A program made the translations under genes and the position numbers. Positions 14,117-31,926 of a stretch of 46,215 bases of DNA are shown in pieces. The notes below the pieces were generated by a model that searched no databases, was not told where the DNA came from, and saw only the letters and a program-made list of their open reading frames with translations. Position 1 is the stretch's first letter. Each line of letters begins with the position of its first letter. The DNA is from Cyanobacteria bacterium P01_D01_bin.156 (GTDB taxonomy: Bacteria > Cyanobacteriota > Cyanobacteriia > Phormidesmidales > Phormidesmidaceae), in assembly GCA_039024555.1 (NCBI GenBank), contig JBCCQQ010000050.1:1-46215 (forward strand), in the 5' to 3' direction.

Positions 14117-16831
14117 ATGCGATATCAGGTTGGTGGTACCCTGCATGCAACAGATCCCACCTATGTAGAACGACAAACCGATAATCGTCTGCTAGAGGCA
14201 CTCACAGACGGGACATTTTGTTATGTGCTCAATTCTCGGCAGATGGGAAAGTCTTCCCTGATGGTGCGCACCAAATATCGTCTACAGCAAGCGGGTCACC
14301 GCTGCGCCATGGTAGATCTGACCAGCATTGGTAGTAAGCGAGTAACACCGGTCCAATGGTACAAGGGTCTGCTGGCCGAACTTTGGCACGATCTGCATAT
14401 GGCAGACGAAGAAGAATTTCAGCACTGGTGGCAGACCCAGGGAGACATCCCGCTGCCACAAAAGTTTAGTCGGTTCATTGCCGAGCGTTTACTCAAACAA
14501 TATCCCGATGACAATTTTTATATTTTTTTGGATGAGGTAGATAGTGTCCTGAGACTGCCCTTTGCGGTGGATGATTTTTTTGCTGCGATTCGCTATTGCT
14601 ACAACCGTCGAGCGGTGGACCCCAACTACCAGCGCATTACCTTTGCCATGTTTGGGGTGGCTAGCCCAACGGATCTGCTCCAAGATACACAGCGCACCCC
14701 CTTTAATATTGGCCAAGCGCTGACATTAAAGGGATTCTCCCTAATGGAGGTTACCCCCCTAGCGCCGGGGCTAAACACCCTGGGTCTGCCATCTTCTACC
14801 CTGGCAGACATTCTCAAATGGACCAATGGGCAACCGTTTCTTACCCAAAAAATTTGTCAGCTGCTAACGGAGCTGGAACCGACTCCCACCAATGGAACAA
14901 GCTGTGTGGATTGGGTGGTGCAAACCCATCTCATTGACAATTGGGAAACCAATGACGAACCTGAACATCTCAGAACTATTCGCGATCGCATCCTCAACCA
15001 GCCAGCCCTCACCGGTCGTTTGCTGGGGCTATACCAACAGATTCTGACGAGTCAGGTGCGCTTTGATGGCAGTCGAGAACACACTGAACTGCTGCTATCG
15101 GGGGTGGTAGCCAACTATCACGGGTATCTTCAGGTCAAAAACCTGATTTATCGCACCATCTTTAATGAAGAGTGGGTGGCCCATCATCTGTCTCGCCTGC
15201 GACCCTATGCCGAGCCCCTAAGCCAATGGTTTGCCAGTGGCGAACCCCGCTACCTCCTCAGGGGCTTAGACCTACAGGAGGCCATGGCTTGGGCCGATGA
15301 AAAAAAGCTCAATGATCTAGACTATCAGTTTCTCAGAACCAGCCAACAGCAGGAACAACAGCGGATTGAAGGCCAACTTGCTGAGGAACAACAACAGCGA
15401 GAACAAATTCAATTTGCCCTAGCGGTAACCCGAGAGGCCAATCAGGTGCTAGCAGAGGCTAAGTTCTCTAGTCGCCAGATGGTCAAACGACTGCGGCTCC
15501 CCCCCTGGTGGATTCTGTTGATAGGTTGTGGCACCGCCTTACTGGTATGGCTGGTGTATCTGACTGGCTGGCTCCAGGGGGGAGAATGGGCCTTACTGGA
15601 TAGTTTTTTTCAGCTGCGTCACCCGGCCACCCCCATGGACCCTCGCATTACCCTGGTAACCATTGATGAAGAGGATCTACAACAAACTGGTCGATACCCC
15701 ATTCCTGACGACGTCATTGTTACAGCGCTACAAAAGATCGAAGCTCAACAGCCCCGCCAAATTGGTTTAGCCTTTTACCGTGACTTACCGGTGGAGCCCG
15801 GCACAACACAGCTCAGACAGCTGTTTGCCACCATGCCCAACCTGGTGGGTATGGAAAAACTTATTGGCAATCAGGTATCGGCCCCCGAGGCTCTGGCCCG
15901 GCGGGGACAGATCGGGTTCACAGACCAGGTGTTTGACCCCGATGGAAACTTACGACGGGCCCTGCTGTCGCTACGCACCCCTGAGGGTGAACTGCACTAT
16001 AGCCTGGCGCTTAAGCTCTCCTTAGACTATTTAGAAGCTGTAGGCATTCGCCCCAATGAATCTCCCCAAGAAGCCCACGTGGTCCAACTGGGGCAGGCCA
16101 CATTACATCCATTTCGTAGCTACGACGGTGGCTATGTGCGGGCAGATGATGGAGGCTACCAAGTATTGATCAATTATTGGGGGACCCAAAGCAAATTCCA
16201 GACCTATTCTTTACAACAGCTTTTGACCGATAGTATCCCCCAGGGAACAATGCGCGATCGCATAGTACTCATCGGTCCTACCGCCGAGAGTGTACGCACC
16301 TTAGTTGGTACTCCTTTTAGCGCCTCCTGGTTTGGGATGCCCCGCGAAGATATGCCCGCTATTACCGTCCATGCCAATATCATCAGCCAGATCTTGGCCG
16401 CAGCCCTAGATCAACGCCCTATATTAACAACCTGGGCAGCTGGCTATGAACACCTTTGGAGACTAGCCTGGGCACTAGCTGCCTGTACTGTTACCTGGTG
16501 GTTGAAGTCGCTGCCGCGTATTCTCCTAGTAGGTAGCCTCGGGCTAATGGGGCTATGTATTCTCTGCTACGCTAGTTTTTTAGCCGGGTGGTGGGTGCCG
16601 CTAGTGCCCGCTGGACTGTGTTGGATTGTGGCCATGGGGGCATTTGTCTTTACAACGAACCATCGTCTTGGGCAGATTCAGCTGCGACAGACCGTACATC
16701 AGCTAATGGCTATTACTCGGGATAAACCAGCCGTAGGTCAAATCGCCCTAGAATATCTTCAGCAAACAGAGAGTGAAGAAAATCAGATGCTCATTAACAA
16801 TCTATTGGAAAAACATCGTTCGTCACCCTAG
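14117..16831 (+). CDS. AAA_35 NTPase + TM + CHASE2 sensor domain + 3 TM helices
   Basis: YVERQ.D, NSRQMGKSS, FLDEVD, GQPFLTQ, EPEHLRTIRDR; CHASE2 ITLVTIDE.D, YRDLP, DPDG.LRR, DRIVLIG, HANIISQ. Confidence 0.9.
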   Translation: MRYQVGGTLHATDPTYVERQTDNRLLEALTDGTFCYVLNSRQMGKSSLMVRTKYRLQQAGHRCAMVDLTSIGSKRVTPVQWYKGLLAELWHDLHMADEEEFQHWWQTQGDIPLPQKFSRFIAERLLKQYPDDNFYIFLDEVDSVLRLPFAVDDFFAAIRYCYNRRAVDPNYQRITFAMFGVASPTDLLQDTQRTPFNIGQALTLKGFSLMEVTPLAPGLNTLGLPSSTLADILKWTNGQPFLTQKICQLLTELEPTPTNGTSCVDWVVQTHLIDNWETNDEPEHLRTIRDRILNQPALTGRLLGLYQQILTSQVRFDGSREHTELLLSGVVANYHGYLQVKNLIYRTIFNEEWVAHHLSRLRPYAEPLSQWFASGEPRYLLRGLDLQEAMAWADEKKLNDLDYQFLRTSQQQEQQRIEGQLAEEQQQREQIQFALAVTREANQVLAEAKFSSRQMVKRLRLPPWWILLIGCGTALLVWLVYLTGWLQGGEWALLDSFFQLRHPATPMDPRITLVTIDEEDLQQTGRYPIPDDVIVTALQKIEAQQPRQIGLAFYRDLPVEPGTTQLRQLFATMPNLVGMEKLIGNQVSAPEALARRGQIGFTDQVFDPDGNLRRALLSLRTPEGELHYSLALKLSLDYLEAVGIRPNESPQEAHVVQLGQATLHPFRSYDGGYVRADDGGYQVLINYWGTQSKFQTYSLQQLLTDSIPQGTMRDRIVLIGPTAESVRTLVGTPFSASWFGMPREDMPAITVHANIISQILAAALDQRPILTTWAAGYEHLWRLAWALAACTVTWWLKSLPRILLVGSLGLMGLCILCYASFLAGWWVPLVPAGLCWIVAMGAFVFTTNHRLGQIQLRQTVHQLMAITRDKPAVGQIALEYLQQTESEENQMLINNLLEKHRSSP

Positions 16832-18534: not shown

Positions 18535-20067
18535 CTAAAGCCAGGTCCCAATTAGAACAAACGGAGCCCAATAAAAGGGATGGCTATAGCCACTGTTTAA
18601 GAGAGAAAGCTGTGCCTGTCGTAACGCTTCAGCACGGGACTGGCCCTGGTTTAGCTGCTGATAAAACTCAGCCATTAATATCGCTGTGGACCGGTCGTTA
18701 ACTGACCATAGTGAGGCCACCGTACTTCTTGCACCAGAACGTACCGCCACTCCCGCCATTCCTAGGGTCGCTTTCTCATCGCCTTTAGCCGTTTGGCAGG
18801 CGCTCAAAATTAACATTTCAATCGGTGTTTGTTGTTCTCGCTGCTGTAGCAATTTTTCTAAGTCATGAATGTGTAATCGATTGTTCCAGGTGAGGATAAA
18901 TGTCTCATCGGCCCTAGAGCTAAATTGACCATGGGTGGCTAAATGCATAATCGAACTGGGTTTTTCTAGCACATGCTGAGCCAGTTTGGCCTTGGTAAAG
19001 TCTTGGTTAACTAAGACCTGCGTAGGCGTCTGTGTCTGAATTTGATGCAGCTCCACATCGACGGATGGTAGCGCCCGAAACCCCTGCCGTGCCGCAGAGA
19101 GCCCCCCAGCTAAAACCTGACGGCCTTGAGTCCTAAGCCCTGGGGAATCAAAAAGCTGCAGTCCAGGAGTCACAGCAATACTGTAGCGTTCAATGAGAAA
19201 TTGATGACCATTGTGTAAAACAGCCAATGGTACGTTGCGCAGGTGGCTATCTACAACAAATATTAAACGTTGAATGCCGTGTTGAATAAGGGCTGACTCT
19301 GCCGGACGCAGAAGCCAATCATAAATCTTTTGGGCGGGCCTCAGCACTCGATCGGCTGGGAAAGCGGCGTTAAGGGCCTGTCTTAATGTCTGAAATGTTG
19401 CCTGTCTCTGCTGGGGGGGCAGCGGTACCCTATGGTGATGTAAACGACCATTGGGGAATGACACAATTACCTCTAGACAGCTATCCAATACCATTGAATA
19501 GATAACAGCTGCTTGGGGATCAATCTGCTCAATGGGGCGAACGCTGTAGGTTCCACGAGTTTCACAAAAAAAATGTTCTAATTCAGCTATTTGAAAAGAT
19601 TCAATGATTTTGCAGGCCTGGGTTAATCGCTGTTGCTGCTGACCGATGGGAAGTGTATCTATACCTTGCAACAAGAGCGTCACCAGCTGTCGATAGACCG
19701 GCTCAATCTGGGTTTGAAACGATATTGCGGCATTACGGCCCCTGGGCTTCTGTTGTAACGCTGTTAATAGGGGGACGGTTTGTCTGTAGGTTGCGATCGC
19801 AGTTTTTGTTTTTCCTTGAATTGCGATCGCATGCGTCTTACGCTCCTGGGTATCTGTCTGCTGAGGGTTATGGACCGTTGGTTTAAGGCAAGTATCTGTC
19901 CACTGCTGCAGGATCTGACAAACCTTATCGAGCTGACTTCGAATATAGGACTCTACTGGAATAGTGTTGCGAGCGATACAATATTCTCCATCAGCTTTGG
20001 CCCCACAGCGCTGTCCCCCTAGCCTAGAACATAGGCTCTCGTTACTCGGTGGTAATAGAACATCCAT
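18535..20067 (-). CDS. CHAT domain (caspase-like) protein with short helical N-terminal region
   Basis: IEPVYRQLV.LL, AQKIYDWLLRP, FLIERYSIAVTPGL, HLATHGQF (His), ILSACQTA (Cys), ASLW.V.D, HPFYWAPFVLIG.W. Start uncertain (ATG 20067 or TTG 20100). Confidence 0.9.
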   Translation of the reverse strand: MDVLLPPSNESLCSRLGGQRCGAKADGEYCIARNTIPVESYIRSQLDKVCQILQQWTDTCLKPTVHNPQQTDTQERKTHAIAIQGKTKTAIATYRQTVPLLTALQQKPRGRNAAISFQTQIEPVYRQLVTLLLQGIDTLPIGQQQQRLTQACKIIESFQIAELEHFFCETRGTYSVRPIEQIDPQAAVIYSMVLDSCLEVIVSFPNGRLHHHRVPLPPQQRQATFQTLRQALNAAFPADRVLRPAQKIYDWLLRPAESALIQHGIQRLIFVVDSHLRNVPLAVLHNGHQFLIERYSIAVTPGLQLFDSPGLRTQGRQVLAGGLSAARQGFRALPSVDVELHQIQTQTPTQVLVNQDFTKAKLAQHVLEKPSSIMHLATHGQFSSRADETFILTWNNRLHIHDLEKLLQQREQQTPIEMLILSACQTAKGDEKATLGMAGVAVRSGARSTVASLWSVNDRSTAILMAEFYQQLNQGQSRAEALRQAQLSLLNSGYSHPFYWAPFVLIGTWL

Positions 20068-20146
20068 TGGCAAAATAATGATTTCCCCCTTGCAAAGCAA
20101 TGATGGCCGCCATCCTAGTCTTTCTTAAGAAAAACCAATAGGGTCT

Positions 20147-20164: not shown

Positions 20165-20515
20165 GTCCCCTGCTGTATCCCTTTGAACTGCTGGATAGTT
20201 TTATCACTAATATTCTTACTTTTCTCTCTTTAGTCACCTAAAAGTCTTAATTAATGGTCAGCAAGGAACTCACTCTCCAATGTACTAAAGGCAAGAAAAG
20301 CAACATTTAGTAGTAATCCCATCTTAATGGCGGTGCTTGATCTACCATTGACTTGATAACCAGGAGACGTATCCTACGACAACGGTGTGCTTTAAGTAAC
20401 CGTCTAGCTAACGCTTGAGTATTAAATGTCTTAGCGAGTGTCCCAAGCCCCACGGTCCAGTATTCTGGGCTTATTCTCTCACCTTGAAACCAGGTCATTT
20501 ACCCCCTTACAAGCT

Positions 20516-22024
20516 ATGTCAGCAATGAATGGCACCATGATGCAGTACTTTCACTGGTACAGCAGCGCCGACGATAATCTATGGAGCAAAGTTAAAACCG
20601 AGGCAAACAACTTAGCCAACGCTGGTATTACCGCCCTTTGGCTGCCCCCTGCCTATAAAGCGTGTAACCCCAACACGCCTGATCGAGAGTGGGACGATGT
20701 GGGCTATGGCACCTATGACTGGTTCGATTTGGGGGAGTTTAACCAAAAAGGGGCTGCTCGTACCAAGTACGGCACTAAAGAAGAGTACCTAGCGGCCATT
20801 CAAGCAGCCCATGCGGTGGGGATCGAGATCTATGCCGATGTGGTGTTTAACCATAAAAATGGTGGCGATCGCACTGAGCAATCTCCAGCTGTCGCATACC
20901 ACGCTAACCGTCGCCATCAGCGTGTGATGGACGATGGCGGCAGCGAGATGATTGAGACCTTCACCTGTTTTGATTTCCCAGGGCGGGGGGACACCTATTC
21001 CAAAATGAAGTGGAACTGGCAACACTTTGATGCCGTTAACTACAATCACGCCCGTCCCGGAGAGCAACCCTCTAAGATCTATCTATTTGAAGGTAAAAAC
21101 TTTGAAAAGATGGTCAGCCTGGAACATGGTAACTATGACTTTCTCCTTGGCTGCGACCTGGATATGGAAAACGAAGAGGTCCGCAACGAGCTAATGTACT
21201 GGGGAGAATGGATTCTCGACACCACCCAGGTCAATGGATTTCGCCTAGACGCCATTAAACACATTCCCAGCTGGTTCTTTAACCAATGGTTAGATCACGT
21301 GCGTCAGTACACGGGAAAAAATCTATTTTGCGTTGGCGAATATTGGGAAAACAATACGGGGGTTCTACATGACTACATCGCCCAAACCGGTGGGCGAATG
21401 TCTCTGTTTGATGTAGAACTTCACTATAACTTTCACTACGCCAGCAAAATGGGTGGGGCTTTTGACATGCGCCAAATCCTCACTGGGACCCTAATGGCAG
21501 AACAGCCTGCCCTAGCATGTACGATTGTTGAGAATCATGACTCTCAGCCGCTGCAGGCTTTAGAATCTCCGGTAGAAGACTGGTTTAAACCGTTAGCTTA
21601 CGCTATTATTCTTTTACGGCGAGAAGGTTACCCATGTGTTTTCTATGGTGACTATTATGGAGCCGACTATGAAGACTATGGCCGTGACGGCAATTGTCAT
21701 CGGGTCATCCTAGCATCCCATAAAGAGATTATCGACAAACTATTGGCTGCCCGTAGGGATTACGCCTATGGTGACCAATACGATTATTTTGATCATCAAG
21801 ATGTTATTGGTTGGACTCGCTTAGGTGACTCAGACCACCCTAATGCTATGGCTGTTATTTTGAGTGATGGTCCTGGGGGGTGTAAGTGGATGGAAGTTGG
21901 TAAACCAAACGCTAAGTTTGTTGATCTAACTGGACATAGCCAAAGCCCTGTTTACACCAATGAATGGGGCTGGGGCGAGTTTCACTGTCACGGTGGGTCT
22001 GTTTCCGTTTGGATTCAAGCATAG
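20516..22024 (+). CDS. amyA: Cytoplasmic alpha-amylase, GH13 (AmyA-like)
   Basis: NGTMMQYFHWY, DVGYG.YD.FDLGEF.QKG, DVVFNH, GFRLDAIKH (nucleophile), GEYW, VENHD. No signal peptide. Confidence 0.95.
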   Translation: MSAMNGTMMQYFHWYSSADDNLWSKVKTEANNLANAGITALWLPPAYKACNPNTPDREWDDVGYGTYDWFDLGEFNQKGAARTKYGTKEEYLAAIQAAHAVGIEIYADVVFNHKNGGDRTEQSPAVAYHANRRHQRVMDDGGSEMIETFTCFDFPGRGDTYSKMKWNWQHFDAVNYNHARPGEQPSKIYLFEGKNFEKMVSLEHGNYDFLLGCDLDMENEEVRNELMYWGEWILDTTQVNGFRLDAIKHIPSWFFNQWLDHVRQYTGKNLFCVGEYWENNTGVLHDYIAQTGGRMSLFDVELHYNFHYASKMGGAFDMRQILTGTLMAEQPALACTIVENHDSQPLQALESPVEDWFKPLAYAIILLRREGYPCVFYGDYYGADYEDYGRDGNCHRVILASHKEIIDKLLAARRDYAYGDQYDYFDHQDVIGWTRLGDSDHPNAMAVILSDGPGGCKWMEVGKPNAKFVDLTGHSQSPVYTNEWGWGEFHCHGGSVSVWIQA

Positions 22025-22165: not shown

Positions 22166-22579
22166 ATGGCCACAACCGACATTAAAGATCTAGTTGTTGA
22201 TAGTAAAACCAACGCTTATAAGCTCACACCGGCTCAGATGACCGACATCCAGAAAACAGGTGTCGAAACATCCCTAGAAGCTGGTATTCACGTAGTGCGC
22301 ATCCGTAAAGGTGGGTTTGATTATGTGGGCGGAGACGCTCAGACAGGTGAACCCATCGTTATGCTTTGGATATACGGTGGTAAGTTTAAGAATCTCAAGA
22401 CTGGTGTTGAGGTTCCTGCTGGGTGGTCCACCCTCAATGGGTATGACGATACCTTAACGCTAGCAGTCTCAGAGTCTGTAACACTATGCGCCTTTTTCTT
22501 CGATGTAGAGATCGAGGACAATGCAGGCAAAATAACTGTTTCAGCTGTTAAGGTGGGTGAATTGACCGATCTTGCCTAG
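22166..22579 (+). CDS. Conserved hypothetical beta-rich protein (137 aa)
   Basis: AGGAG RBS, alternating beta-strand pattern, EP.V.LWIYGG, WSTLNGYDDTL and CAFFFD...DN.G; ends at a strong terminator. Confidence 0.85.
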   Translation: MATTDIKDLVVDSKTNAYKLTPAQMTDIQKTGVETSLEAGIHVVRIRKGGFDYVGGDAQTGEPIVMLWIYGGKFKNLKTGVEVPAGWSTLNGYDDTLTLAVSESVTLCAFFFDVEIEDNAGKITVSAVKVGELTDLA

Positions 22580-22601
22580 AGATAACTGTCCATAGTCTTT
22601 T

Positions 22602-22638
22602 AAAAAAGGCAAGTGTGTCATAACACGCTTGCCTTTTT
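22602..22638 (+). terminator. Intrinsic, probably bidirectional, terminator
   Basis: AAAAAAGGCAAGTGTGT-CATA-ACACGCTTGCCTTTTT. Confidence 0.85.
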
Positions 22639-23062
22639 CTGAAAATTGCTGCCGTTGTCAAGCTGCAAAATATTGCTGTGCCCTAGGGGAATAGATCCTA
22701 CAGGGTGTTTTCTGTAGCCAAACACCCATATTCAGGCAAGAAAGGTAAGATTGTTGCCTATCAAATACCGACATAAAGGTAAGTTTGTAGTACCTTACTT
22801 TATGTCTACTCTCTTGCAGACCGACAATAGGTCAAAACGGTTATGGTGGGGATGTAAACAAAGGATAAGAATAGGTGCCTCACCACATTGTCTCGACTGT
22901 GAGTTGCTATTCTCAATCTAGTTGTGATTTACAACAGTGTTTCAACAAGAGAATAGAGTTCCTCATATTTGAGCTAGGCATCAAGGAGATTATATTTTCA
23001 TCTCTGTTTTGAGAGATAGGTCTGATTCTGTCCTAATCTAATTTTCGTTGGAGATTTATCAA

Positions 23063-23278
23063 ATGGCTGGTCAAATTACTCTCAGCAACTTGGACGCCCT
23101 AACCTTTGATCAATTTGGACGTGATCCCAATCGGGACATTGTCTGTGTGGCTCCGGTGCGCACCATGATTCGTCGTGAAGAAGAAATTATTTTAATCCGT
23201 CGTGTTCGCAAGGTAGAAGAAGTGGATGCAAGCCCCACTTGCCCCACCGGCTCTACCCAGGCGACTGAAGTGCAGTAG
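23063..23278 (+). CDS. Small protein 1 carrying the two-Cys VCVAP...ASPxCP module (71 aa)
   Basis: GGAG RBS before the ATG at 23063; clear paralog of the next gene. Confidence 0.85.
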   Translation: MAGQITLSNLDALTFDQFGRDPNRDIVCVAPVRTMIRREEEIILIRRVRKVEEVDASPTCPTGSTQATEVQ

Positions 23279-23293
23279 GCTAAATAGAGCAGT

Positions 23294-23333
23294 CTGGCTG
23301 CTGGGATGTCGGACTCACCGTCCCACCAGCCAG
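23294..23333 (+). promoter_or_regulatory. GC-rich intergenic stem-loop after small protein 1
   Basis: CTGGCTGCTGGGA...TCCCACCAGCCAG, 13-bp stem with 1 mismatch and no immediate U tract. Confidence 0.6.
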
Positions 23334-23480
23334 GCGAAGTCGTTTCTTAACAGCTCCTAAGCATAGGGATGCGGCTATCTGGCTAAAGGTTTAATGGTTC
23401 TGTTACGTCTCAAATTTGCAACGTTGACTGCAACATCCCAATGTTGTTGGTACTGAACGACCTATCATGAGGTTTCTATA

Positions 23481-23750
23481 ATGATCGATTCAAATAGCAA
23501 TGACATTGTGACCGTTAGTGACCTGGATACCCTCAGCTTTGATCAATTTGGACGTGATCCCAGTCGGGATATTGTCTGTGTGGCTCCGGTGCGCACCATG
23601 GTTCGTCGTGAAGAAGAAATTGTTTTAATCCGTCGTGTTCGCAAAGTGGAAGAAGTGGATGCCAGCCCGGCTTGTCCTGTAAATTCCACTCAAATGACTA
23701 AGGTATATCAGGAAGGCGGCGATACCGCCGAAGCCCGAATTTTACGCTAG
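23481..23750 (+). CDS. Small protein 2 carrying the two-Cys module (89 aa)
   Basis: GAGG RBS; LD.LsFDQFGRDP.RDIVCVAPVRTM.RREEEI.LIRRVRKVEEVDASP.CP shared with small protein 1. Confidence 0.85.
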   Translation: MIDSNSNDIVTVSDLDTLSFDQFGRDPSRDIVCVAPVRTMVRREEEIVLIRRVRKVEEVDASPACPVNSTQMTKVYQEGGDTAEARILR

Positions 23751-23829
23751 CACTCATTAGCTAGTCTTGAGATTTTTTAGATCGGAAATTTGTTGGCCTC
23801 CAGCATTGGAGGGATTTAGCTATGTGAGT

Positions 23830-25110
23830 ATGCTTATCCCTGATTGGAACAGTGCTCTTGCCTTGTTGTTGATCGTATTCCTCTTTGCGTTAGTTATTCT
23901 GCGTTTGCTTAAGAAGACTATGACTGAAAAAATACCCGAGAAGATAGTCCTAATATCGGTTATTCGTGACTTTCGAGCAATTCACCCAGATTTCGAGAAT
24001 GATGCCCAGACCCTTTGGAATCGCCATACGGATTTAAGGCTTCCAGAAAAGGGTATCGTTGCAGAGGTATTGGGAGCTGACAAAAAACCGATTTATCGTA
24101 ACCCTCAGGCAGGCACTCATACTACAACGGGGAAAGCATCGTTTGATCAGTGGTATCGCGACGATCCTACCGTTAATCGCACGGTTAGGCTTCCCTTAGA
24201 ATTGGAATTAGACCATACGGCAGAAGGCAGTGCCCAGTATAAGCTAGAGAGCGAAGATTTCTTTCCCCTGGATGGTCAATCAGGCACTTTAGGCAGCCTC
24301 CACGAGGCCGTGTATCGGAACGGAGAGTTAGGTCTTGTTGTGGATAAGAATATCCGAGATAAGACCAAGCGTTTAGGCTATATCGAGAAAGAAGCAGGCG
24401 ATTATCTTACAGAAGCGGATATCAAAGGCCGTTTTGATAGCGACGAAGCCAAAACACATAACTATCACTTTACCCAAGAAATTTCGACAAGATTTGTCTA
24501 CAAGGGTAATGAGTTTTTTGAATTCCAGGGAGATGACGATCTTTGGGTCTTTATCGACAATAAGTTGGTCATTGACTTAGGAGGATTACATGCTCCCGCT
24601 AAAGCCAGAATTGATTTGAGTTTAACGAATACTCAGAACCAAGCCGCAGATCAGACCAAAATGGTGAAACTAAAGCTCAAAGAAGATTTGGGTATTGATT
24701 CTGCCAGTGATAGCAGCGCATTGGTTTTAGAGGTGGGTAAGGCATACGATCTACGCATATTTCATGCGGAACGGCACACCTTTGATTCTAATTTTAAAAT
24801 TTATACGTCGATTCAATTGGAGTCCGCTGTTGATGAAGAAACACCAGAGCCGCTAATTGAACCTGAGCCGCCTGCTGCTGACGCTGTGCCTGATATGCCC
24901 GACCTACCGGTTCTACCAGCGGACATCTGGAATGTAGGTGAGCGGGTCGTGTGTGTAGCACCGATACGTACTATTATCCGACGAGAAGAGGAGATTACCA
25001 TTATTCGTCGGGTGCGTAAGGTGGAAGAAATCGATGCAAGTCCCACCTGTCCTATAGGTTCACCCCCCATCAATGCAGCACAAATGACGGATATTCAGCA
25101 AGATAGCTAG
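23830..25110 (+). CDS. Membrane-anchored fibro-slime/PA14 domain protein with Pro/Glu linker and C-terminal two-Cys module
   Basis: N-terminal TM; IRDF...HPDFE, SFDQWYRD, FFPLD, HNYHFT.E, F.F.GDDDLWVFID.KLVIDLGGLH, IFHAERH..SNF.I.T. Start is ATG 23830 or GTG 23824. Confidence 0.88.
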   Translation: MLIPDWNSALALLLIVFLFALVILRLLKKTMTEKIPEKIVLISVIRDFRAIHPDFENDAQTLWNRHTDLRLPEKGIVAEVLGADKKPIYRNPQAGTHTTTGKASFDQWYRDDPTVNRTVRLPLELELDHTAEGSAQYKLESEDFFPLDGQSGTLGSLHEAVYRNGELGLVVDKNIRDKTKRLGYIEKEAGDYLTEADIKGRFDSDEAKTHNYHFTQEISTRFVYKGNEFFEFQGDDDLWVFIDNKLVIDLGGLHAPAKARIDLSLTNTQNQAADQTKMVKLKLKEDLGIDSASDSSALVLEVGKAYDLRIFHAERHTFDSNFKIYTSIQLESAVDEETPEPLIEPEPPAADAVPDMPDLPVLPADIWNVGERVVCVAPIRTIIRREEEITIIRRVRKVEEIDASPTCPIGSPPINAAQMTDIQQDS

Positions 25111-25127: not shown

Positions 25128-26090
25128 ATGGACTATGGATTTGCCCTAAGTATGGCTGTAGTCCTTGGGCTGTTGTTGTTGATAATTATAGTTGGCACTT
25201 GGCTAAACCATGAATCTTTGGCCGATGAAGAACCTGTAATCGAGTCAACAGATACAGCTCCAGAGGTACCAGTAGAAGAGTCTCAAAATGTAGAGGCAGG
25301 TTCTACAAAGGGAGAGGAAATCTCTGTAGAGAAGAATGATACCTATGAGTTGGCAAACGTTCGCTTTAGTCAGCAGGACTATCAATCGGCCTTAAATCTG
25401 TATGCTCAGTCTCTACAGGCAAACCCACAGTTTGCGCCTGCCTACAATAATCGAGGCAATACATACTATGCGCTTGGGCAGTATTCGCAAGCCATTGCCG
25501 AGTATAGTCAAGCGATTAAACTAAAGCCTGACTATACTCGTGCTTACTACAATTGGGGCAATGCATGTTATGCGAGTGGAGATGTGCAGGGTGCGATCGC
25601 AGCTTTTACCGAAGCCATTAGCCTCGACCCTAACTACATCGAGGCATACAACAATCGCGGCAATTGTTATGTGGCTGTTAAAGCGTATCAAGAGGCCATA
25701 GATGACTTTGACCAAGCATTGGAACTCGATCCAAACTTTATAGAAGCCTACAACAATATTGGTCATCTCTTCTACCAGATGAACCAGCATGATAATGCCC
25801 TAGAAAATTACGAACAGTCTCTTAAAATTGAGCCGCTTCAGCCGGTGGCCCTTAACAACTATGGCAGCGTGCACCTAGCCCTCAACCAACTTCCTCAAGC
25901 TGTGGAAAGTTACGATCAGGCCATTGCGCTAAATCCTGACTATGCTGAGGCTTACTACAATCGAGGGATTGCCCATAATACGATGGCTCAACCCCAGATA
26001 GCCCAGGCTGACTTTCGAAAAGCCATGGAATTGGCAAAGCAGCAGGGGAATCAGAAACTTTTATATCAGCTGCAATCTCCTGTTGGCTAA
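25128..26090 (+). CDS. N-terminally membrane-anchored TPR protein
   Basis: TM helix, acidic linker, ~7 TPRs (AYNNRGN.Y..LG.Y..AI..Y.QAI.L.P.Y). Confidence 0.92.
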   Translation: MDYGFALSMAVVLGLLLLIIIVGTWLNHESLADEEPVIESTDTAPEVPVEESQNVEAGSTKGEEISVEKNDTYELANVRFSQQDYQSALNLYAQSLQANPQFAPAYNNRGNTYYALGQYSQAIAEYSQAIKLKPDYTRAYYNWGNACYASGDVQGAIAAFTEAISLDPNYIEAYNNRGNCYVAVKAYQEAIDDFDQALELDPNFIEAYNNIGHLFYQMNQHDNALENYEQSLKIEPLQPVALNNYGSVHLALNQLPQAVESYDQAIALNPDYAEAYYNRGIAHNTMAQPQIAQADFRKAMELAKQQGNQKLLYQLQSPVG

Positions 26091-26404: not shown

Positions 26405-26731
26405 GTGACAAAGCAAAAACAGTTTTCTAGTTTTCAAGATTTGATTAGCGATCGCAACACCCCTACGTTAGTGAGCTTCTATGCGAGCTGGTGTGGCTAT
26501 TGCAAACAGTTTTCTCCCATTTTGAATCAAGTAAAAACCCAAATGGGCGATCGCGTTAAGGTCATCAAAATTAGTACTGAAAAATACCCTCAGTTGGCAA
26601 AGGAGCATGATGTAAAATCTCTGCCAACGACGTTACTGTTTGTGGACGGTAAACTCGCCAGCCGGATTAAAGGCGTAATGGAAGCACCTAAACTAATGCA
26701 GTATATTCAAAAAGTTGTCTCCCAAGGCTAG
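26405..26731 (+). CDS. Thioredoxin with atypical WCGYC active site (y/Q-type-like N-terminus)
   Basis: KQFSSFQDLI, FYASWCGYC, EKYPQLA, SLPT.LLF.DGK. Confidence 0.9.
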   Translation: MTKQKQFSSFQDLISDRNTPTLVSFYASWCGYCKQFSPILNQVKTQMGDRVKVIKISTEKYPQLAKEHDVKSLPTTLLFVDGKLASRIKGVMEAPKLMQYIQKVVSQG

Positions 26732-26765: not shown

Positions 26766-28112
26766 CTACGGTAAAAGCGTTTGGAGTTGTTCCCGAAAAT
26801 AGATCCGATAAAGATTACAAATAACCTGAACTCTTCCATCATTAAAATGAACTAGCCCCAGCCCTTCTAATTTGTGGGTTGAAATCGCATCTAACACCAC
26901 TCCTCTGTTCGACTCCACTACAGTTCTAAAGATTGAAGCTAATTCAAGATCGTCAGCTAATGCTATTAACAGTTCTTGCAAATGACTGCGATAAATACCA
27001 TCCGATGTGCATGCCGTAGCTAGTAACTCTCGTAAGGTGATTTCATCTCGATGCAAGTAATAGAACGCTAAATTTGCTAGGTAGGGATGTCCATCGATCA
27101 TCCGGTATAGGGACTCTAAATCTGAATATTGATCGTCTGACCAATGTAAGCCAAATCGATGGGATAAGCCTTGCACTTGTTCAAAGGAAAAGAACGGTAA
27201 CCGGATCGGAATTCCTACATTTAACGGTGACTTTTTTAACTGCAGGGGCGCATACACATCCGTTGAGTAAACTAGAACCATCCGCAGCTTTTGCCAAAGT
27301 GAATTGTCTTTTGACTGTTCGTGCCAAAATCGTAGCATGGGCAAAAAGTCTCGCGCCAGACTAGGGAATTCAAACAGGTAGTTCAGTTCATTAATGCTCA
27401 ACAATAGGGGCTTCTTTAAAGCAGTTAAAATATGCGTTTCTATATAGTGCTTACAGTTCACCTTACTGCCCATCTCTGGAATCCAGCTGGATTCTAAATT
27501 ATCTTCTAGGTTTAAGGCTTGGGTAATATAGCGACAAAACCACTGTAAAAAGATCTCAGTATTATTCAACAGATCTTGGCTCGCTTCCTGAAAATCAAGC
27601 GTAACAATGTGGTACCCCTGTTGTTGAGCATGCCAAGTCAATCGCTTGAGCAGGGAGCTTTTACCCATTCTGCGGGGAGCTTTGATGCGTAGTAAACAGC
27701 CTTCGTGGCCAAGCTCTTCGTAGGCTAGCTGTTCCGTCGGGGGACGTTCTACATACAGTGGCGAATCTAGGGGCAGTGGGCCAGACGGAAAGCGATGACT
27801 CTTTTTTTGGCTGGCAACAACTGTCGATAAAATTGGTCCCCTATCCACAGCACTCGTTGTCAGCAAAGGCTCCAGGACTAGTTTAAGATTCTTTTTAGTT
27901 ATGGGTTTATCAATGGATCGAGATAGCTCACCCCAAAGGACAGAGCCAATCTGCTTCATATAATCGATGCTATAGCCTGAACCTTGGGCAATTTTGTCGT
28001 AGCTTTGCCCCTGCCAAGATTGCAAAAATACTAACTTTTCTAGAGGACTGAGGGTTCGGTTGAACCACTTCTGTTCAATATTTTCCAGCAACTGGTCGTG
28101 GGGCTCGGTCAT
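26766..28112 (-). CDS. N-terminal HTH + AAA_35 NTPase (paralog of 12384..13796)
   Basis: SWQGQSYDKIA, RFPSGPLPLDSPLYVER, APRRMGKSS; Walker B reads LSINE. Confidence 0.87.
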   Translation of the reverse strand: MTEPHDQLLENIEQKWFNRTLSPLEKLVFLQSWQGQSYDKIAQGSGYSIDYMKQIGSVLWGELSRSIDKPITKKNLKLVLEPLLTTSAVDRGPILSTVVASQKKSHRFPSGPLPLDSPLYVERPPTEQLAYEELGHEGCLLRIKAPRRMGKSSLLKRLTWHAQQQGYHIVTLDFQEASQDLLNNTEIFLQWFCRYITQALNLEDNLESSWIPEMGSKVNCKHYIETHILTALKKPLLLSINELNYLFEFPSLARDFLPMLRFWHEQSKDNSLWQKLRMVLVYSTDVYAPLQLKKSPLNVGIPIRLPFFSFEQVQGLSHRFGLHWSDDQYSDLESLYRMIDGHPYLANLAFYYLHRDEITLRELLATACTSDGIYRSHLQELLIALADDLELASIFRTVVESNRGVVLDAISTHKLEGLGLVHFNDGRVQVICNLYRIYFREQLQTLLP

Positions 28113-28211: not shown

Positions 28212-31200
28212 TCACCCACACAGCCTACGATCTTCCTCCACAATCTCAGGATTAGTCCGTAAATAATCAGCAATTAATTCACAGGCAAACTCTGTGTCAT
28301 CGAGCTCCAGAATTTTATCGATGTGCCAGACAATGACATTCTGATCGTCACCACCCGAAGCTAAAAAGGTTCCGTCTGGGCTAAAAGAGACCGCATGGCC
28401 AGACGCTGTATGACCATAGAGCGTTGTTAATAAGGTGCCATCGGTTGACCACAGTCGTATGGTCTGATCAGAACTGGCGGATGCAACAATTTCACCATCG
28501 GGATTAAAGTCTACATCATAAACTTCTCCGTCATGGCCAGTTAGGGTGTGCAGTAAACTGCCGTCTGGTTTCCATAGCTGCACCGTGCCGTCCCAGTTAG
28601 CGGAGGCCAGAGTTTTGTTGTCAGGACTAAAGACAGAAATAACAGAGGAGGCATCTAAGGTGGAAACGGGAGTATCGTCAAGCTGTTTAATGGCAATTTG
28701 ATTATTTTGCTGTGCGATCGCAAACCGCTGACCATCGGGGCTCACATCTAGCCCTAGAATGCCAGCGCCTTGATCCACCATATTTAAAAGCTTTCCGGTC
28801 TGATTCCAAAAGCTTAGATTACCGTTCACACTTGTCGCCATCAGGGTTTCACTATCGGGGGTAAAGTGAACACTCAGGATCGTACTCGTATGACCTTTTA
28901 AGGTGTTCTCTAAAGTACCGGTGCGATAGTCCCAGACATTGATGGTACGGTCGTTACTTCCAGAAGCTAATCGCTGGCCATCCGGGCTAAACGCCAAAGA
29001 AGTAGCCCGGTTTGTATGTCCCGTTAAGGTTTTTATGTGAGTGCCATCCGGCTGCCATAGCTGAACTGTAGCATCCGTATGAGCCGACGCCACGGTCTGA
29101 CCATCGGGGCTAACGCTAACGGTAAAAACGCTGGCCTCCGATGGCATCACTGTTTTTAAGGGATGGTTCACCTGCCAAACGCGCACCGTTTTATCTTGAC
29201 TCGCTGAGAATAGCTGTTGCCCATCGGGACTAAAAACAACATCATGAACAGCGGCCTGATGCCCTGCAAATATCTGCAGTAAACGCCCCTCTAAACTCCA
29301 TAGTTTAACCAGACCGTCTGCCCCGGTGGATGCAAACGTCTGCCCGTCGGGACTAAAGGTGAGATCTCGAACAAATCCGTCGTGGGCCTGTAGGGTTAAC
29401 TGTTCCAGCATCTCTAACGGAGACTCTCCCCGCTGCCAGATTTTAATAACGCCGTTGGAGTCCCCCGAGAGGAGGTAAGCGCCATCCGAGCGCCAGTCTA
29501 AACCATGGACATAGGTACCATTGTGGGGCAATACAGCCTGGCCCGTACCGTTAACCTGCCACAACCGCACCGTGCCATCACTGCTGGTAGATGCCAGATA
29601 TTGATCGTCAGCTGTAAAGACAACATTGGAAACGCCGCTGCCATGGTCGGCCAGCGTCTTTACTGTGGTACCGTTTTGATCCCATATTCGAATGGTGCCA
29701 TCCGAGCTGGCTGAAGCTAAATAGTCTCCATTACGACTCCAAGCCACACTAAACAGTTCGGCACTATGACCCTGCCAGGTAGCTTGTTGTTGGCCGTCAG
29801 AATCATAGATCCGAATGTTACTGTCTTGCCCCCCAACGGCAATGCGCTGACCATCGGGACTCATTTTAATTTTGACATTGGGGGACACATCACTATCAGT
29901 GATGCTCCACATTAAGGTGCCATCCCGCTGCCATCGGTGAATTTCGTTGGTGCCCCCAATCGTTACCAAACTTTCACCATCCGGACTCCAATCTATTCCC
30001 CAAAGCCCGGTATTGGAACCAGAAAATCGGTTTATTTCCTGGGCGGCATAGATTGAGCGATTGAGAATCGTATCCACCTGGCTAACCAGGGTCGGCGGCG
30101 GCGACTGATTTAATGCGTTTAACCGCTGCTTTGTTTTGACACTGACAAAGATTGCATCCAAAAGTTGTTGCGAGGCTAAGCTGCCCTGGGCCGCTGACAT
30201 TAGAGCCTCAACTTCACTCAATCGGGCCTGGTTTTCGTTGTGCAAGGCTCGACGAGATTGCCAAAAGGCCACCATACTAAGGGCGATCGCACCCACCAGC
30301 CCCACAGAAACAGCCCCTAGCAAATAACGCTGTAGCTTACTGGCCCGACGTTCTTGTTCCAGCCTGGCCTTAACTTCTTTTGCCTGGGCAACCTCAAACT
30401 GTTGTTGAGCTTCCTGTCGTTCTAAGGCTTCGCTGGCCCTAAGAAACTGATAGTCTAGGTCATCTAAACTTTTATCTACGGCCCATTGTTGCGCATCCTG
30501 TAAGGCCTGCCCCCGCAACAGACGAGATGAATCTTGCTGGTGAGATGCATCCCAAACCTTTAAGGCCTGGGCATAGGGGCGCAGGTTAGCCAGCTGTTGA
30601 GTCACCCAGGTCTGGTTAAATACAGCGGCATAAATTGGGTTGCGAATGCGCAGGATATTTTGGTGTTGAACCACTAAACCCGACAGTAATAGCTCTGTTT
30701 GTTCTAAACTATCGTCGGTGGATATGGACTCTCCTTGCAAGAGCTTTTGGTATAACCCTAATAGTCGTCCGGCACGCATTTCATTGCGAAGAATGCGATC
30801 GCGAATGGTGCGTAAATGCTCTGGCTCGTCCTGGGACTCCCAATGATCAATCAGCTGATTGTATACAAGCTGAGCCACCCAATCAGCATCCCCTAAACCC
30901 AATACATCTTTTGTTGTCGTCATCCGGCTAGCAACTGTAGCCAGCTGACACAGCTTTTGGGTAAGAAACGGCTGTCCCCCAGTCCAATCCAAAATCGTTT
31001 GCAACACCGTTTTCGCATCCCGCTGACCAACCGCCAGACCATCCGCCAGGTGAGACGCTTCGGCCATGGAAAAGCCATGGAGTGTGACAGCATGGCCGAT
31101 ATTAAACGGGGTACGAGTTTTATCCTGAATTAAGTCTGCGGGAGTTGCCACCCCAAACAAGGCAAACGTAATCCGCTGAAAGATGGGATTGAGTGCCCGT

Positions 31201-31706
31201 TGGTTGTAGCAGTAGCGAACCAGCGCAAAAAAGTCATCCACAGCGAAGGGCAACGCCAGTACGCTATCAATTTCATCGACCATAATAAACAGCCGCTGAT
31301 CGGCCAGCTGCTTAAGCAGCACCTCACTTAAAAAGTGGCTGAGCTTTTGCACCAAGGGCATATCCCCCTGCTGTTGCCACCAACCATGCAGCTCTGCCAT
31401 GGAAAACTCAAAGGGGTGTTCAGTTTGTAACCCACTCACAAGCTCGCCCAGAATACCTTTGTACCACTGTTGTGGCGTAATCATCTCTGTTCCCACGTTG
31501 GTCATATCTAACGTGAGACACTGATGCCCGTCTCGGTGCAGCCGTTTTTTGGTCCTTACCAGCAGTGATGATTTACCCATCTGCCGGGTATTAAAGACAT
31601 AACAAAATTCTCCCTGCTGTAGCGACTGATATAAGTCCCCATCTGCCTGCCGCACCACATAGGTTGGGTCCTGGTTGGTTAAGGTGCCACCAATCTGATA
31701 GCGCAT
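28212..31706 (-). CDS. AAA_35 NTPase + TM + WD40 repeat protein
   Basis: MRYQIGG start parallels the 14117 gene; NTRQMGKSS, MVDEID; TM LLGAVSVGLVGAIALSMVAFW; ~14 WD40 repeats (GH...FSPDG...S.S.D..V.LW). Confidence 0.92.
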   Translation of the reverse strand: MRYQIGGTLTNQDPTYVVRQADGDLYQSLQQGEFCYVFNTRQMGKSSLLVRTKKRLHRDGHQCLTLDMTNVGTEMITPQQWYKGILGELVSGLQTEHPFEFSMAELHGWWQQQGDMPLVQKLSHFLSEVLLKQLADQRLFIMVDEIDSVLALPFAVDDFFALVRYCYNQRALNPIFQRITFALFGVATPADLIQDKTRTPFNIGHAVTLHGFSMAEASHLADGLAVGQRDAKTVLQTILDWTGGQPFLTQKLCQLATVASRMTTTKDVLGLGDADWVAQLVYNQLIDHWESQDEPEHLRTIRDRILRNEMRAGRLLGLYQKLLQGESISTDDSLEQTELLLSGLVVQHQNILRIRNPIYAAVFNQTWVTQQLANLRPYAQALKVWDASHQQDSSRLLRGQALQDAQQWAVDKSLDDLDYQFLRASEALERQEAQQQFEVAQAKEVKARLEQERRASKLQRYLLGAVSVGLVGAIALSMVAFWQSRRALHNENQARLSEVEALMSAAQGSLASQQLLDAIFVSVKTKQRLNALNQSPPPTLVSQVDTILNRSIYAAQEINRFSGSNTGLWGIDWSPDGESLVTIGGTNEIHRWQRDGTLMWSITDSDVSPNVKIKMSPDGQRIAVGGQDSNIRIYDSDGQQQATWQGHSAELFSVAWSRNGDYLASASSDGTIRIWDQNGTTVKTLADHGSGVSNVVFTADDQYLASTSSDGTVRLWQVNGTGQAVLPHNGTYVHGLDWRSDGAYLLSGDSNGVIKIWQRGESPLEMLEQLTLQAHDGFVRDLTFSPDGQTFASTGADGLVKLWSLEGRLLQIFAGHQAAVHDVVFSPDGQQLFSASQDKTVRVWQVNHPLKTVMPSEASVFTVSVSPDGQTVASAHTDATVQLWQPDGTHIKTLTGHTNRATSLAFSPDGQRLASGSNDRTINVWDYRTGTLENTLKGHTSTILSVHFTPDSETLMATSVNGNLSFWNQTGKLLNMVDQGAGILGLDVSPDGQRFAIAQQNNQIAIKQLDDTPVSTLDASSVISVFSPDNKTLASANWDGTVQLWKPDGSLLHTLTGHDGEVYDVDFNPDGEIVASASSDQTIRLWSTDGTLLTTLYGHTASGHAVSFSPDGTFLASGGDDQNVIVWHIDKILELDDTEFACELIADYLRTNPEIVEEDRRLCG

Positions 31707-31926
31707 TTGGTACAGCACTTCTGAGACCTCAGTGTAGAGTGTGCTAGTACGCTACCAACCCAAAGACGATGCACAAGGCAAAAGATGAAAAAGTTATTTT
31801 CTTTAGTGAATAACTCACCTTTATTACTTTTCTATCCAAGAGATTTGTTGGCTGGTCAAGTTTACTTATCGAGACTGTTGAACGATATGAACCAGACCCT
31901 ATGTCTCAGTCTTATTACTTCTCAGC

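Follow-up and report, generated by a model that had tools for sequence, protein, structure and literature searches.

The DNA analysed in this work (the window) is a stretch of 46,215 nucleotides from Cyanobacteria bacterium P01_D01_bin.156 (assembly GCA_039024555.1, contig JBCCQQ010000050.1, positions 1 to 46,215 of the forward strand), and the subject is a short peptide module, tentatively read here as a docking tag, together with the operon that encodes it. As seen in both the open reading frame (ORF) listing and the raw sequence, the + strand carries the module in three consecutive genes: the first two encode mini-proteins, and in the third the module lies at the C-terminus of a large protein (Table 1). 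When a mini-protein was used as query against the genome to which the window belongs, exactly three places were found (E 8e-43, 1e-32 and 1e-17); mini-proteins 1 and 2 share 80% identity across residues 5-70. The large protein matches PF07691 (PA14; E 8.7e-13, 48.8 bits against a cutoff of 24) and TIGR02148 (fibro-slime; E 4.9e-31, 107 bits against a cutoff of 45). A preliminary description of this DNA, made from the letters alone, had reported a nearly identical ~37-residue segment in three consecutive genes and named the third product a fibro-slime/PA14 protein; both statements stand, the first of them far beyond chance, as judged by the genome search and by the 58 loci described below. The Pro/Glu linker, the RLLKK that follows the hydrophobic segment, and the charge pattern to which it drew attention are likewise all found in the sequence.

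The three copies were compared over their cores of 36 residues (IVC...CP; 108 nucleotides each). Between copies 1 and 2, 9 of 108 nucleotides are changed, with a nonsynonymous rate (dN) of 0.038 and a synonymous rate (dS) of 0.268. Copies 1 and 3 differ at 30 of 108 nucleotides but retain 30 of 36 residues, 19 of these 30 being specified by different codons, and here dN is 0.099 while dS is saturated and not computable. Residues are thus kept despite synonymous divergence, which argues for selection on the peptide and not on the DNA or RNA, as the preliminary description had proposed for the third copy; conservation at the RNA or DNA level as the cause of the repeat is ruled out by the same divergence. 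Judged from these codon comparisons, the module is under strong purifying selection. The minus strand holds open frames that mirror each module copy (23110-23247, 23543-23689 and 24813-25073; 45-86 residues, rich in R, S and I), and comparable antisense frames are found again in related loci (clusters c6, c7 and c9); they are probably a by-product of the repetitive GAA/CGT-rich codons of the module.

Table 1. Features of the module operon and its surroundings in the window
Feature	Position	Strand	Properties
Mini-protein 1	23063..23278	+	71 residues, essentially the module alone; core IVC..CP at 23138-23245
Mini-protein 2	23481..23750	+	89 residues; core at 23571-23678
PA14/fibro-slime protein	23830..25110	+	ORF 23767-25110; likely start ATG 23830; transmembrane helix ~23851-23907
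Third core copy	24946-25053	+	C-terminus of the 447-residue PA14/fibro-slime ORF 23767-25110, after the Pro/Glu linker
X-domain protein	22166..22579	+	137 residues; untagged here, module-fused elsewhere; predicted jelly-roll fold, LecA/PA-IL-like
Tetratricopeptide repeat (TPR) protein	25128..26090	+	N-terminal transmembrane helix, acidic linker, about 7 TPR repeats; TPR_1 E 1.3e-57, 7 stretches
Thioredoxin paralogue	26405..26731	+	WCGYC, no signal peptide; PF00085 E 2.5e-24, 85.7 bits (cutoff 23.5)
Intrinsic-terminator-like hairpin with U tract, after X gene	22598..22643	+	22596-22645 folded: dG -24.2 kcal/mol, z -7.8, 0/200 shuffles as good
Stable stem-loop without U tract, after mini-protein 1	23292..23335	+	23279-23345 folded: dG -30.1 kcal/mol, z -3.6, 0/200 shuffles as good
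GH13 alpha-amylase, cytoplasmic-type	20438..22024	+	NCBIfam NF006969 E 1.5e-197; accessory neighbour
AAA_35+CHASE2	14117-16831	+	neighbour
CHAT protease	18535-20100	-	neighbour
AAA_35 with N-terminal region (residues 1-107) outside the AAA_35 match	26766-28112	-	neighbour
AAA_35+WD40	28212-31718	-	neighbour

To describe the module in general, 119 module ORFs were collected using a motif that does not include Cys, and 107 unique windows gave the consensus LSFDSFxRxPxxDIVCVAPVRTIVRREEEIxLIRRVRKVEEIDASPACPVNTTQ. The module spans ~60 residues, and both Cys residues (Cys28 and Cys60, 31 residues apart) are present in all 119 copies, Pro always directly following the second. A polar tail (xNTTQxSxVQQE) is frequent after the module; the PA14-type tags have, in place of the LSFDSF lead, one of the (D)IWxVGER type (ADIWNVGER in the window, NIWDVGER in protein P0067). 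The peptide AQMTDIQ occurs twice in the window, near the N-terminus of the X protein (22238-22258) and in the tail of the PA14 protein after the module (25076-25096), and similar tails are seen in relatives (AAQMSDIQQDS, TAQMTDVQQDA). An invariant Cys pair whose second member always precedes Pro, combined with a thiol-handling partner in the operon (see below), could also mean that the VCVAP and CP cysteines of two modules jointly bind a metal, an Fe-S cluster or haem. This is extremely improbable, given that each module offers just two ligands and the aligned modules contain no further conserved His or Cys, that no cofactor-biogenesis genes are conserved nearby, and that a Cys-less variant is known.

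The aliphatic pattern of the module has a dominant period of 3.0 (power 0.83, versus 0.21 at 3.6 and 0.16 at 2.0, in 100 unique modules). When residues 36-54 are paired in mirror fashion, 8 of the 19 pairs are of opposite charge and none is of like charge, in agreement with the self-complementary charges noted in the preliminary description. AlphaFold2, using alignments of 29 and 22 rows that are shallow and nearly invariant, gives mini-protein 1 a mean pLDDT of 57.4 and a pTM of 0.16 with no secondary structure, and in a natural fusion of two X domains and a module (X-X-module) it gives the module a pLDDT below 50 and both X domains values of ~90; docking of the module onto X in cis is not predicted in this fusion. 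On these models the module is probably disordered on its own. A four-chain complex prediction (TPR residues 60-320, X, mini-protein 2 and mini-protein 1) returned an ipSAE of 0.00 in both runs, with controls not folded and a design outside the calibration of the tool, and counts for neither side.

These properties bear directly on the model offered in the preliminary description, in which the mini-proteins polymerise into a filament of beta-ribbon type, a shell or an amyloid-like scaffold that disulfides may lock, the tagged proteins being minor subunits. The self-complementary charge pattern and the invariant Cys residues fit such an assembly, as do the place of the one to three mini-protein genes at the head of the operon, often that of major-subunit genes, the stable hairpin that follows mini-protein 1, which hints at an excess of mini-protein, and the vWA, propeller, PA14 and lectin domains described below, which are of the sort that fibre-tip adhesins carry. 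We nevertheless regard the model as decidedly unlikely: its beta-ribbon character finds no support in the AlphaFold2 models, which contain no strands, or in an aliphatic period of 3.0 instead of the 2 expected for a beta structure, the highly charged composition is unlike that of known signalling amyloid motifs, and the loci contain neither signal peptides nor machinery for assembly of extracellular fibres.

No named family could be assigned to the module. Pfam returned 0 families at E<=1 for either mini-protein, NCBIfam gave only a chance CbbX match (13 bits, the cutoff being 459), none of the PDB sequences was matched at E<=10 in a profile search, the ESM Atlas gave no usable match for the mini-protein, and PADLOC had no match for the module, the X protein, the PA14 protein or the thioredoxin; the preliminary description had recognised no family either, and the Pfam, NCBIfam, PADLOC and PDB results uphold it. 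In a profile search of 1,835,955,588 proteins, 57 representatives were found at E<=1e-3 and 51 at E<=1e-10, with no distant tail; 47 small relatives of the mini-protein (39-125 residues) were recovered at E<=0.01, with tandem pairs indicated by adjacent locus tags. Every stand-alone mini-protein seen is named 'hypothetical protein' in its source, and the tagged proteins are named solely for their cargo domains. One candidate, P0131 (1009 residues, 6 weak stretches), consists of Thr/Gly-rich repeats in which the conserved residues of the module are absent, and was set aside by eye as a chance match; among viral contigs 23 pattern matches were obtained, none of them a relative of the module. The literature searches made, which did not cover subscription journals, yielded neither the module nor its gene set (mini-proteins, lectin-type cargo, transmembrane TPR protein and thioredoxin).

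The family is narrowly distributed. In an even sample of the phylum it occurs in 3 of 401 genomes (that of the window included), always as clustered copies, and in a collection of species genomes the best 80 of 106 relative-encoding stretches gave 58 loci from at least 42 assemblies (a hand count of accession prefixes). The module is thus not confined to the window, and its recurrence as stand-alone copies and as fusions to varied cargo domains in a conserved neighbourhood is what the preliminary description had named as support for its proposal. Judged by their genera, nearly all named carriers are filamentous cyanobacteria (Lyngbya, Coleofasciculus, Scytonema, Stigonema, Leptolyngbya, Oscillatoria, Drouetiella, Zarconia, Microcoleus and Capilliphycus), with Leptolyngbya sp. 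JSC-1, Scytonema sp. NIES-4073 and Lyngbya aestuarii BL J among the named strains; one carrier is a metagenome-assembled genome of the Chroococcidiopsidaceae.

The module occurs alone in the mini-proteins, or C-terminal, N-terminal or interior to binding domains that are otherwise unrelated. Among 41 longer module proteins, 33 contain PA14 (one of them also a propeller), 5 have only propeller domains (PF21959+PF14339), and 3 are without any Pfam domain. When 52 tagged proteins from the loci were scanned against Pfam, 9 showed PA14 and 15 a DUF6923/DUF4394 propeller, one of the latter with a weak vWA match at the scan threshold; the other 28 comprise 27 that match no family and a single protein whose sole match, to SPP1_Dit, is weak and below the cutoff. 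Most of the family-less proteins consist of two tandem X domains, those of ~360 residues having the architecture X-X-module. Other architectures are module + X-X (P0107), module + propeller (P0095), PA14 + module + propeller (P0072 and P0118), vWA + propeller + module (P0099), and module + a domain of ~150 residues that has an NNDQPGYYxDN motif and for which the lectin PllA is a weak match (E 0.092). A single effector-type fusion was seen, P0129, a metagenomic protein of 365 residues with TIR_2 (E 1.7e-17), a weak TRADD-N match and a divergent module that lacks both Cys residues.

The X domain, present in 59 copies across 33 loci, has no sequence match in Pfam (including PF07828, PA-IL), NCBIfam or the PDB. 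Its predicted fold hints at lectins of the PA-IL/LecA family, to which the three highest-ranking structures in the comparison belong: EclA-N/PllA-like (Z 7.3), PA-IL (Z 6.7) and PllA (Z 6.5) over 93-103 aligned residues, all below the value of 8 that the tool regards as safe, so that according to the tool they may reflect merely a common arrangement. Foldseek ranked first a galactose lectin built of tandem jelly-rolls (E 5e-5, but TM 0.15), and the lead from the protein atlas is PA-IL. Compared with the PA-IL/LecA, PllA and EclA lectins, X shares by eye a ...D-N-x-G-x-V/L... motif; it differs from them in having no Pfam PA-IL match and no Z as high as 8. X was rejected as a system-specific marker, since it matches 21 of the 401 phylum genomes, mostly inside proteins of 1,000-1,800 residues. 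It also ends large proteins unrelated to the module, as in the genome of the window itself, where a PBP_like_2 domain, three DUF4912 domains and X form one protein (G000 contig 10, L078:4327-7335, minus strand).

The system looks cytoplasmic and membrane-associated: the module ORFs, X and thioredoxin carry no export signals, signal peptides being found in none of the tagged proteins or X proteins (0/14) and not in the thioredoxin. A hydrophobic 19-mer occurs in only 2 of 119 module ORFs, the PA14 protein of the window and its closest relative at locus L014, and the other 117 are consistent with the cytoplasmic assembly that the preliminary description had envisaged; an N-terminal hydrophobic 10-mer occurs in 3 of 119, the third being a vWA beta-strand, and in 30/30 of the TPR proteins used as control. 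The same description had spoken of a membrane anchor on the PA14 protein, and such a segment is present in the window and L014 but in none of the other homologues examined. The hydrophobic N-terminus (23830-23919) is conserved only with L014 (MLIPDWNS-TM-(R/K)KTMT, TM being the transmembrane helix), ATG 23920 (M52) corresponds to the start of most homologues, and in five other homologues a stop codon lies directly upstream of the Met equivalent to M52. The recorded gene model also starts at M52 (396 residues, P0081), so that the annotation may miss the N-terminal anchor. In the lineage of the window the PA14 protein would thus probably be anchored itself, with its start at ATG 23830.

The domains attached to the module are of kinds usually extracellular (PA14, vWA, lectin), and Pseudomonas LecA acts at the surface although it has no signal peptide. 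The module might accordingly be an export, sorting or matrix-crosslinking tag, with tagged proteins leaving the cell without a signal peptide and their Cys residues crosslinking outside, and a cytoplasmic thioredoxin, such as the dedicated one encoded without a signal peptide in the operon, keeping them reduced beforehand. We consider this very improbable. No transporter is conserved in the 56 loci analysed, the module contains no hydrophobic segment, and the positive-inside rule would put both the TPR domain and the PA14 anchor toward the cytoplasm. PEP-CTERM-type sorting tails consist of a C-terminal motif, then a hydrophobic transmembrane helix, then a basic tail; no such tail was found here, there being no hydrophobic segment in or after the module, polar tails (VNTTQxSxVQQE) and no NCBIfam match.

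The ORFs of these 56 loci were clustered, and presence was counted in the 25 loci that are not cut by contig ends, absence of a TPR or thioredoxin gene meaning absence within 5 kb. The recurrent order, all on the same strand, is X, mini-protein(s), tagged protein(s), TPR protein, further tagged protein(s) and thioredoxin, with 1-3 mini-protein genes heading the operon. In the 25 untruncated loci mini-proteins are present in 21, tagged proteins in 19, X in 19, the TPR protein in 18, thioredoxin in 17 and an alpha-amylase in 8. The co-conserved membrane TPR protein, the dedicated thioredoxin and the upstream 137-residue X gene were absent from the preliminary description. A simple scan for terminator patterns missed the hairpin after the X gene, which was revealed by folding.

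The TPR homologues have an N-terminal hydrophobic helix in 30/30 cases, mostly followed by K/R, which by the positive-inside rule would place the TPR domain in the cytoplasm, and each repeat contains one invariant Asn. The thioredoxin scores 91.7 against the equivalog TIGR01068, below the cutoff of 96.8, and is thus a divergent paralogue; the genome of the window contains 6 other thioredoxin paralogues, the nearest 46% identical to it. Its first active-site Cys is kept in 30 of 31 members. Lyngbya-type loci have in addition a gene for a pyridine-nucleotide-disulfide oxidoreductase directly upstream; a Pyr_redox_2 oxidoreductase in this position, together with a gene for a Kunitz/BPTI-domain protein downstream, is present in L019, L020, L022, L025 and L071.

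The prominence of the TPR protein suggests another possibility, that the module is an extended peptide bound in the concave groove of a seven-repeat membrane TPR hub, with the mini-proteins competing with or regulating docking. Among partners that lack the module, TPR is the most frequent (18 of 25 untruncated loci, with all 30 homologues membrane-anchored), the aliphatic period of 3.0 fits an extended or polyproline II-like ligand and neither helix nor strand, each TPR repeat has its invariant Asn and the module is predicted to be disordered alone, and the invariant VEE[VI]D is reminiscent of the EEVD ligand of eukaryotic TPR co-chaperones. EEVD ligands are C-terminal, however, and the motif in the module is internal; Asn at that position belongs to the generic TPR consensus; and the module core is kept in the 7 of 25 untruncated loci without a TPR gene. 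On balance this explanation is unlikely, though not negligible. The core is still conserved where neither TPR nor thioredoxin is encoded nearby (L043, L049 and L061), which suggests that contacts of the module with itself or with X, more than TPR alone, are what chiefly constrains it. In L043, L048 and L049, which lack both genes, the c32 protein is found instead (L043:11203-12603, 467 residues, after the mini-proteins and X gene, with homologues in L048 and L049); it has a hydrophobic N-terminus and an acidic linker but no Pfam family, and may be an alternative membrane platform.

The reading that we favour, tentatively and without regarding it as established, is that the module is a conditionally disordered, thiol-switched docking tag common to the mini-proteins and the lectin-type proteins of one operon. 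Such a tag would fold upon binding and join mini-proteins and lectin-type proteins to one another at a membrane platform, which would be the TPR protein or, in some loci, another transmembrane protein. The self-complementary charges (RREEE...RRVRKVEE) could provide for module-module pairing, or for a loop that Cys28 and Cys60 close; docking would be switched on and off, in the manner of CP12, as the Cys pair is oxidised and reduced, with the thioredoxin of the operon serving the switch. The mini-proteins, being untagged copies, would serve to bridge the tagged lectin-like proteins or to titrate them, and the ligand of the lectin-type domains could be either a cytoplasmic glucan or an invader glycan.

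Several observations weigh against a docking tag of this kind. Binding of partners by the module is putative, being deduced from sequence and gene context, and its predicted disorder may merely echo the shallow, near-invariant alignments (29 and 22 rows) given to AlphaFold2. The active site of the operon thioredoxin is CxxS in 10 of 31 cases (L020, L021, L022, L024-L027, L029, L036 and L071, Lyngbya-type loci among them; sites WCSAS, QCPYS, WCSSS and WCSTS). In these CxxS forms two extra Cys residues appear together at LVCFY and ELACRIKG, except that L029 and L036 have ELAARIRG and so lack the second. The TPR gene is missing from 7 and the thioredoxin gene from 8 of the 25 untruncated loci. 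Nor is the latter encoded elsewhere, it seems, in four genomes without an operon thioredoxin: their best matches reach 132-153 bits, no better than the second-ranking, non-operon paralogue in a control genome (147 bits), where the operon copy scores 192. A dedicated thioredoxin therefore cannot exert redox control in every case, and a module variant without Cys exists (P0129). Intracellular PA14, vWA and lectin-type domains are moreover unusual, and an unrecognised export route may be conceivable.

A shared docking tag is a known principle, and as far as sequence searches can tell the module is without detectable homology to any described tag. By its properties CP12, a small redox scaffold protein that serves the Calvin-Benson cycle, is disordered under some conditions and is known in CBS-CP12 fusions too (PMC9406205, PMC6800369 and PMC6142219), is the closest functional analogue. 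Like the module, CP12 as there described is a charged protein of ~70-90 residues that is disordered alone, has Cys loops under thioredoxin control, bridges proteins, and is also found fused in cyanobacteria. The two differ in that they have no sequence relation (no Pfam match at E<=1 for the mini-proteins), that the module has one Cys pair 31 residues apart and CP12 two short-range pairs, and that the partners are lectin-type proteins, TPR and thioredoxin encoded in one operon in the one case and GAPDH and PRK in the other.

Other likenesses are more partial. As in the dockerin-cohesin system, a short tag would bring diverse cargo to a scaffold, and X-X-module resembles scaffoldin-like multivalency; unlike that system, there are no Pfam dockerin or cohesin matches, no signal peptides, and no cis docking of the module on X in the AlphaFold2 model. 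CnoX/YbbN chaperedoxin and plant TDX combine a thioredoxin fold with TPR repeats and in some forms lack the resolving Cys, whereas here thioredoxin and TPR are separate genes, TPR is membrane-anchored and there is a dedicated peptide module. The features of a precursor of a ribosomally synthesized and post-translationally modified peptide were not found: the whole module is near-invariant, with no variable core, it is fused to large globular domains, and no modifying enzyme is conserved in the loci.

The window operon lies amid genes resembling those of conflict systems (Table 1), and AAA_35 genes also flank about 10 of the 56 related loci, in several genera. The module might thus be an adaptor like an effector-associated domain (EAD) which, in multicellular cyanobacteria, couples effectors to lectin-type proteins that sense the glycans of invaders inside the cell. 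According to PMC8195603, the same small EAD occurs on the core of a conflict system (e.g. a VMAP or iSTAND protein) and on separate effectors, and intracellular lectin-like sensors have precedent; EADs and Death-like adaptors resemble the module, on the same source, in being small non-catalytic modules on unrelated proteins, with homotypic contacts proposed and enrichment in multicellular bacteria. The AAA_35, CHAT and WD40 genes that flank the operon and the TIR_2, weak TRADD-N and Cys-less module of P0129 are in keeping with such a role. The module differs from EADs, however, in that it is not predicted to be helical, that its usual partners are binding domains and not effectors, and that it has no fusion to an NTPase: no NTPase or STAND carrier was found among the 41 longer matches or the 57 representatives, P0129 being the single TIR fusion. 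PADLOC has no match, viral contigs hold no relative, and AAA_35 genes are abundant in the carrier genomes, so that their adjacency may be chance. We hold an adaptor function of this sort to be improbable. Bacterial amyloid signalling sequences (BASS), which according to 10.1101/2020.01.06.895854 are found C-terminally on a Bell (or other) effector and N-terminally on an NLR (NB-ARC/NACHT + TPR/WD) encoded next to it, and HET-s type motifs share with the module the occurrence of a short motif in neighbouring genes of filamentous bacteria. They differ from it in that the module is highly charged, nearly invariant across genera and without a Bell or NLR carrier, none being present among the 41 longer matches, the 57 representatives and the 52 scanned fusion proteins.

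A homologue of the alpha-amylase adjoins the module operon in 8 of the 25 untruncated loci, in four different arrangements. The enzyme was rejected as a system-specific marker, being present in 71 of the 401 phylum genomes, and its adjacency remains a hint.

Taken in its fullest form, the proposal would be of a new assembly system, found mostly in filamentous cyanobacteria and without homology to dockerins, EADs, CP12 or amyloid motifs, in which a nearly invariant, thiol-switched tag, alone in mini-proteins or carried by PA14, LecA-like, propeller and vWA proteins, builds by self-assembly a multivalent scaffold that binds glycans at the cytoplasmic side of a membrane, organised by the transmembrane TPR protein and gated by a private thioredoxin; that the whole of this should hold is possible but doubtful. 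Even without a mechanism the family merits a curated model, since Pfam, NCBIfam and PADLOC all fail to detect it. Should the module prove to be a redox-gated docking tag, it would represent both a new domain family and a new multi-protein system of mat- and sheath-forming cyanobacteria, in which cytoplasmic lectin-type proteins are gathered at the membrane in a thiol-dependent manner. This would raise the questions of which intracellular or invader glycans are read by the lectin folds and of how the assembly responds to light and dark or to oxidative state, and a compact tag of ~60 residues, possibly switchable, would become available as a scaffolding element for cyanobacterial biotechnology.

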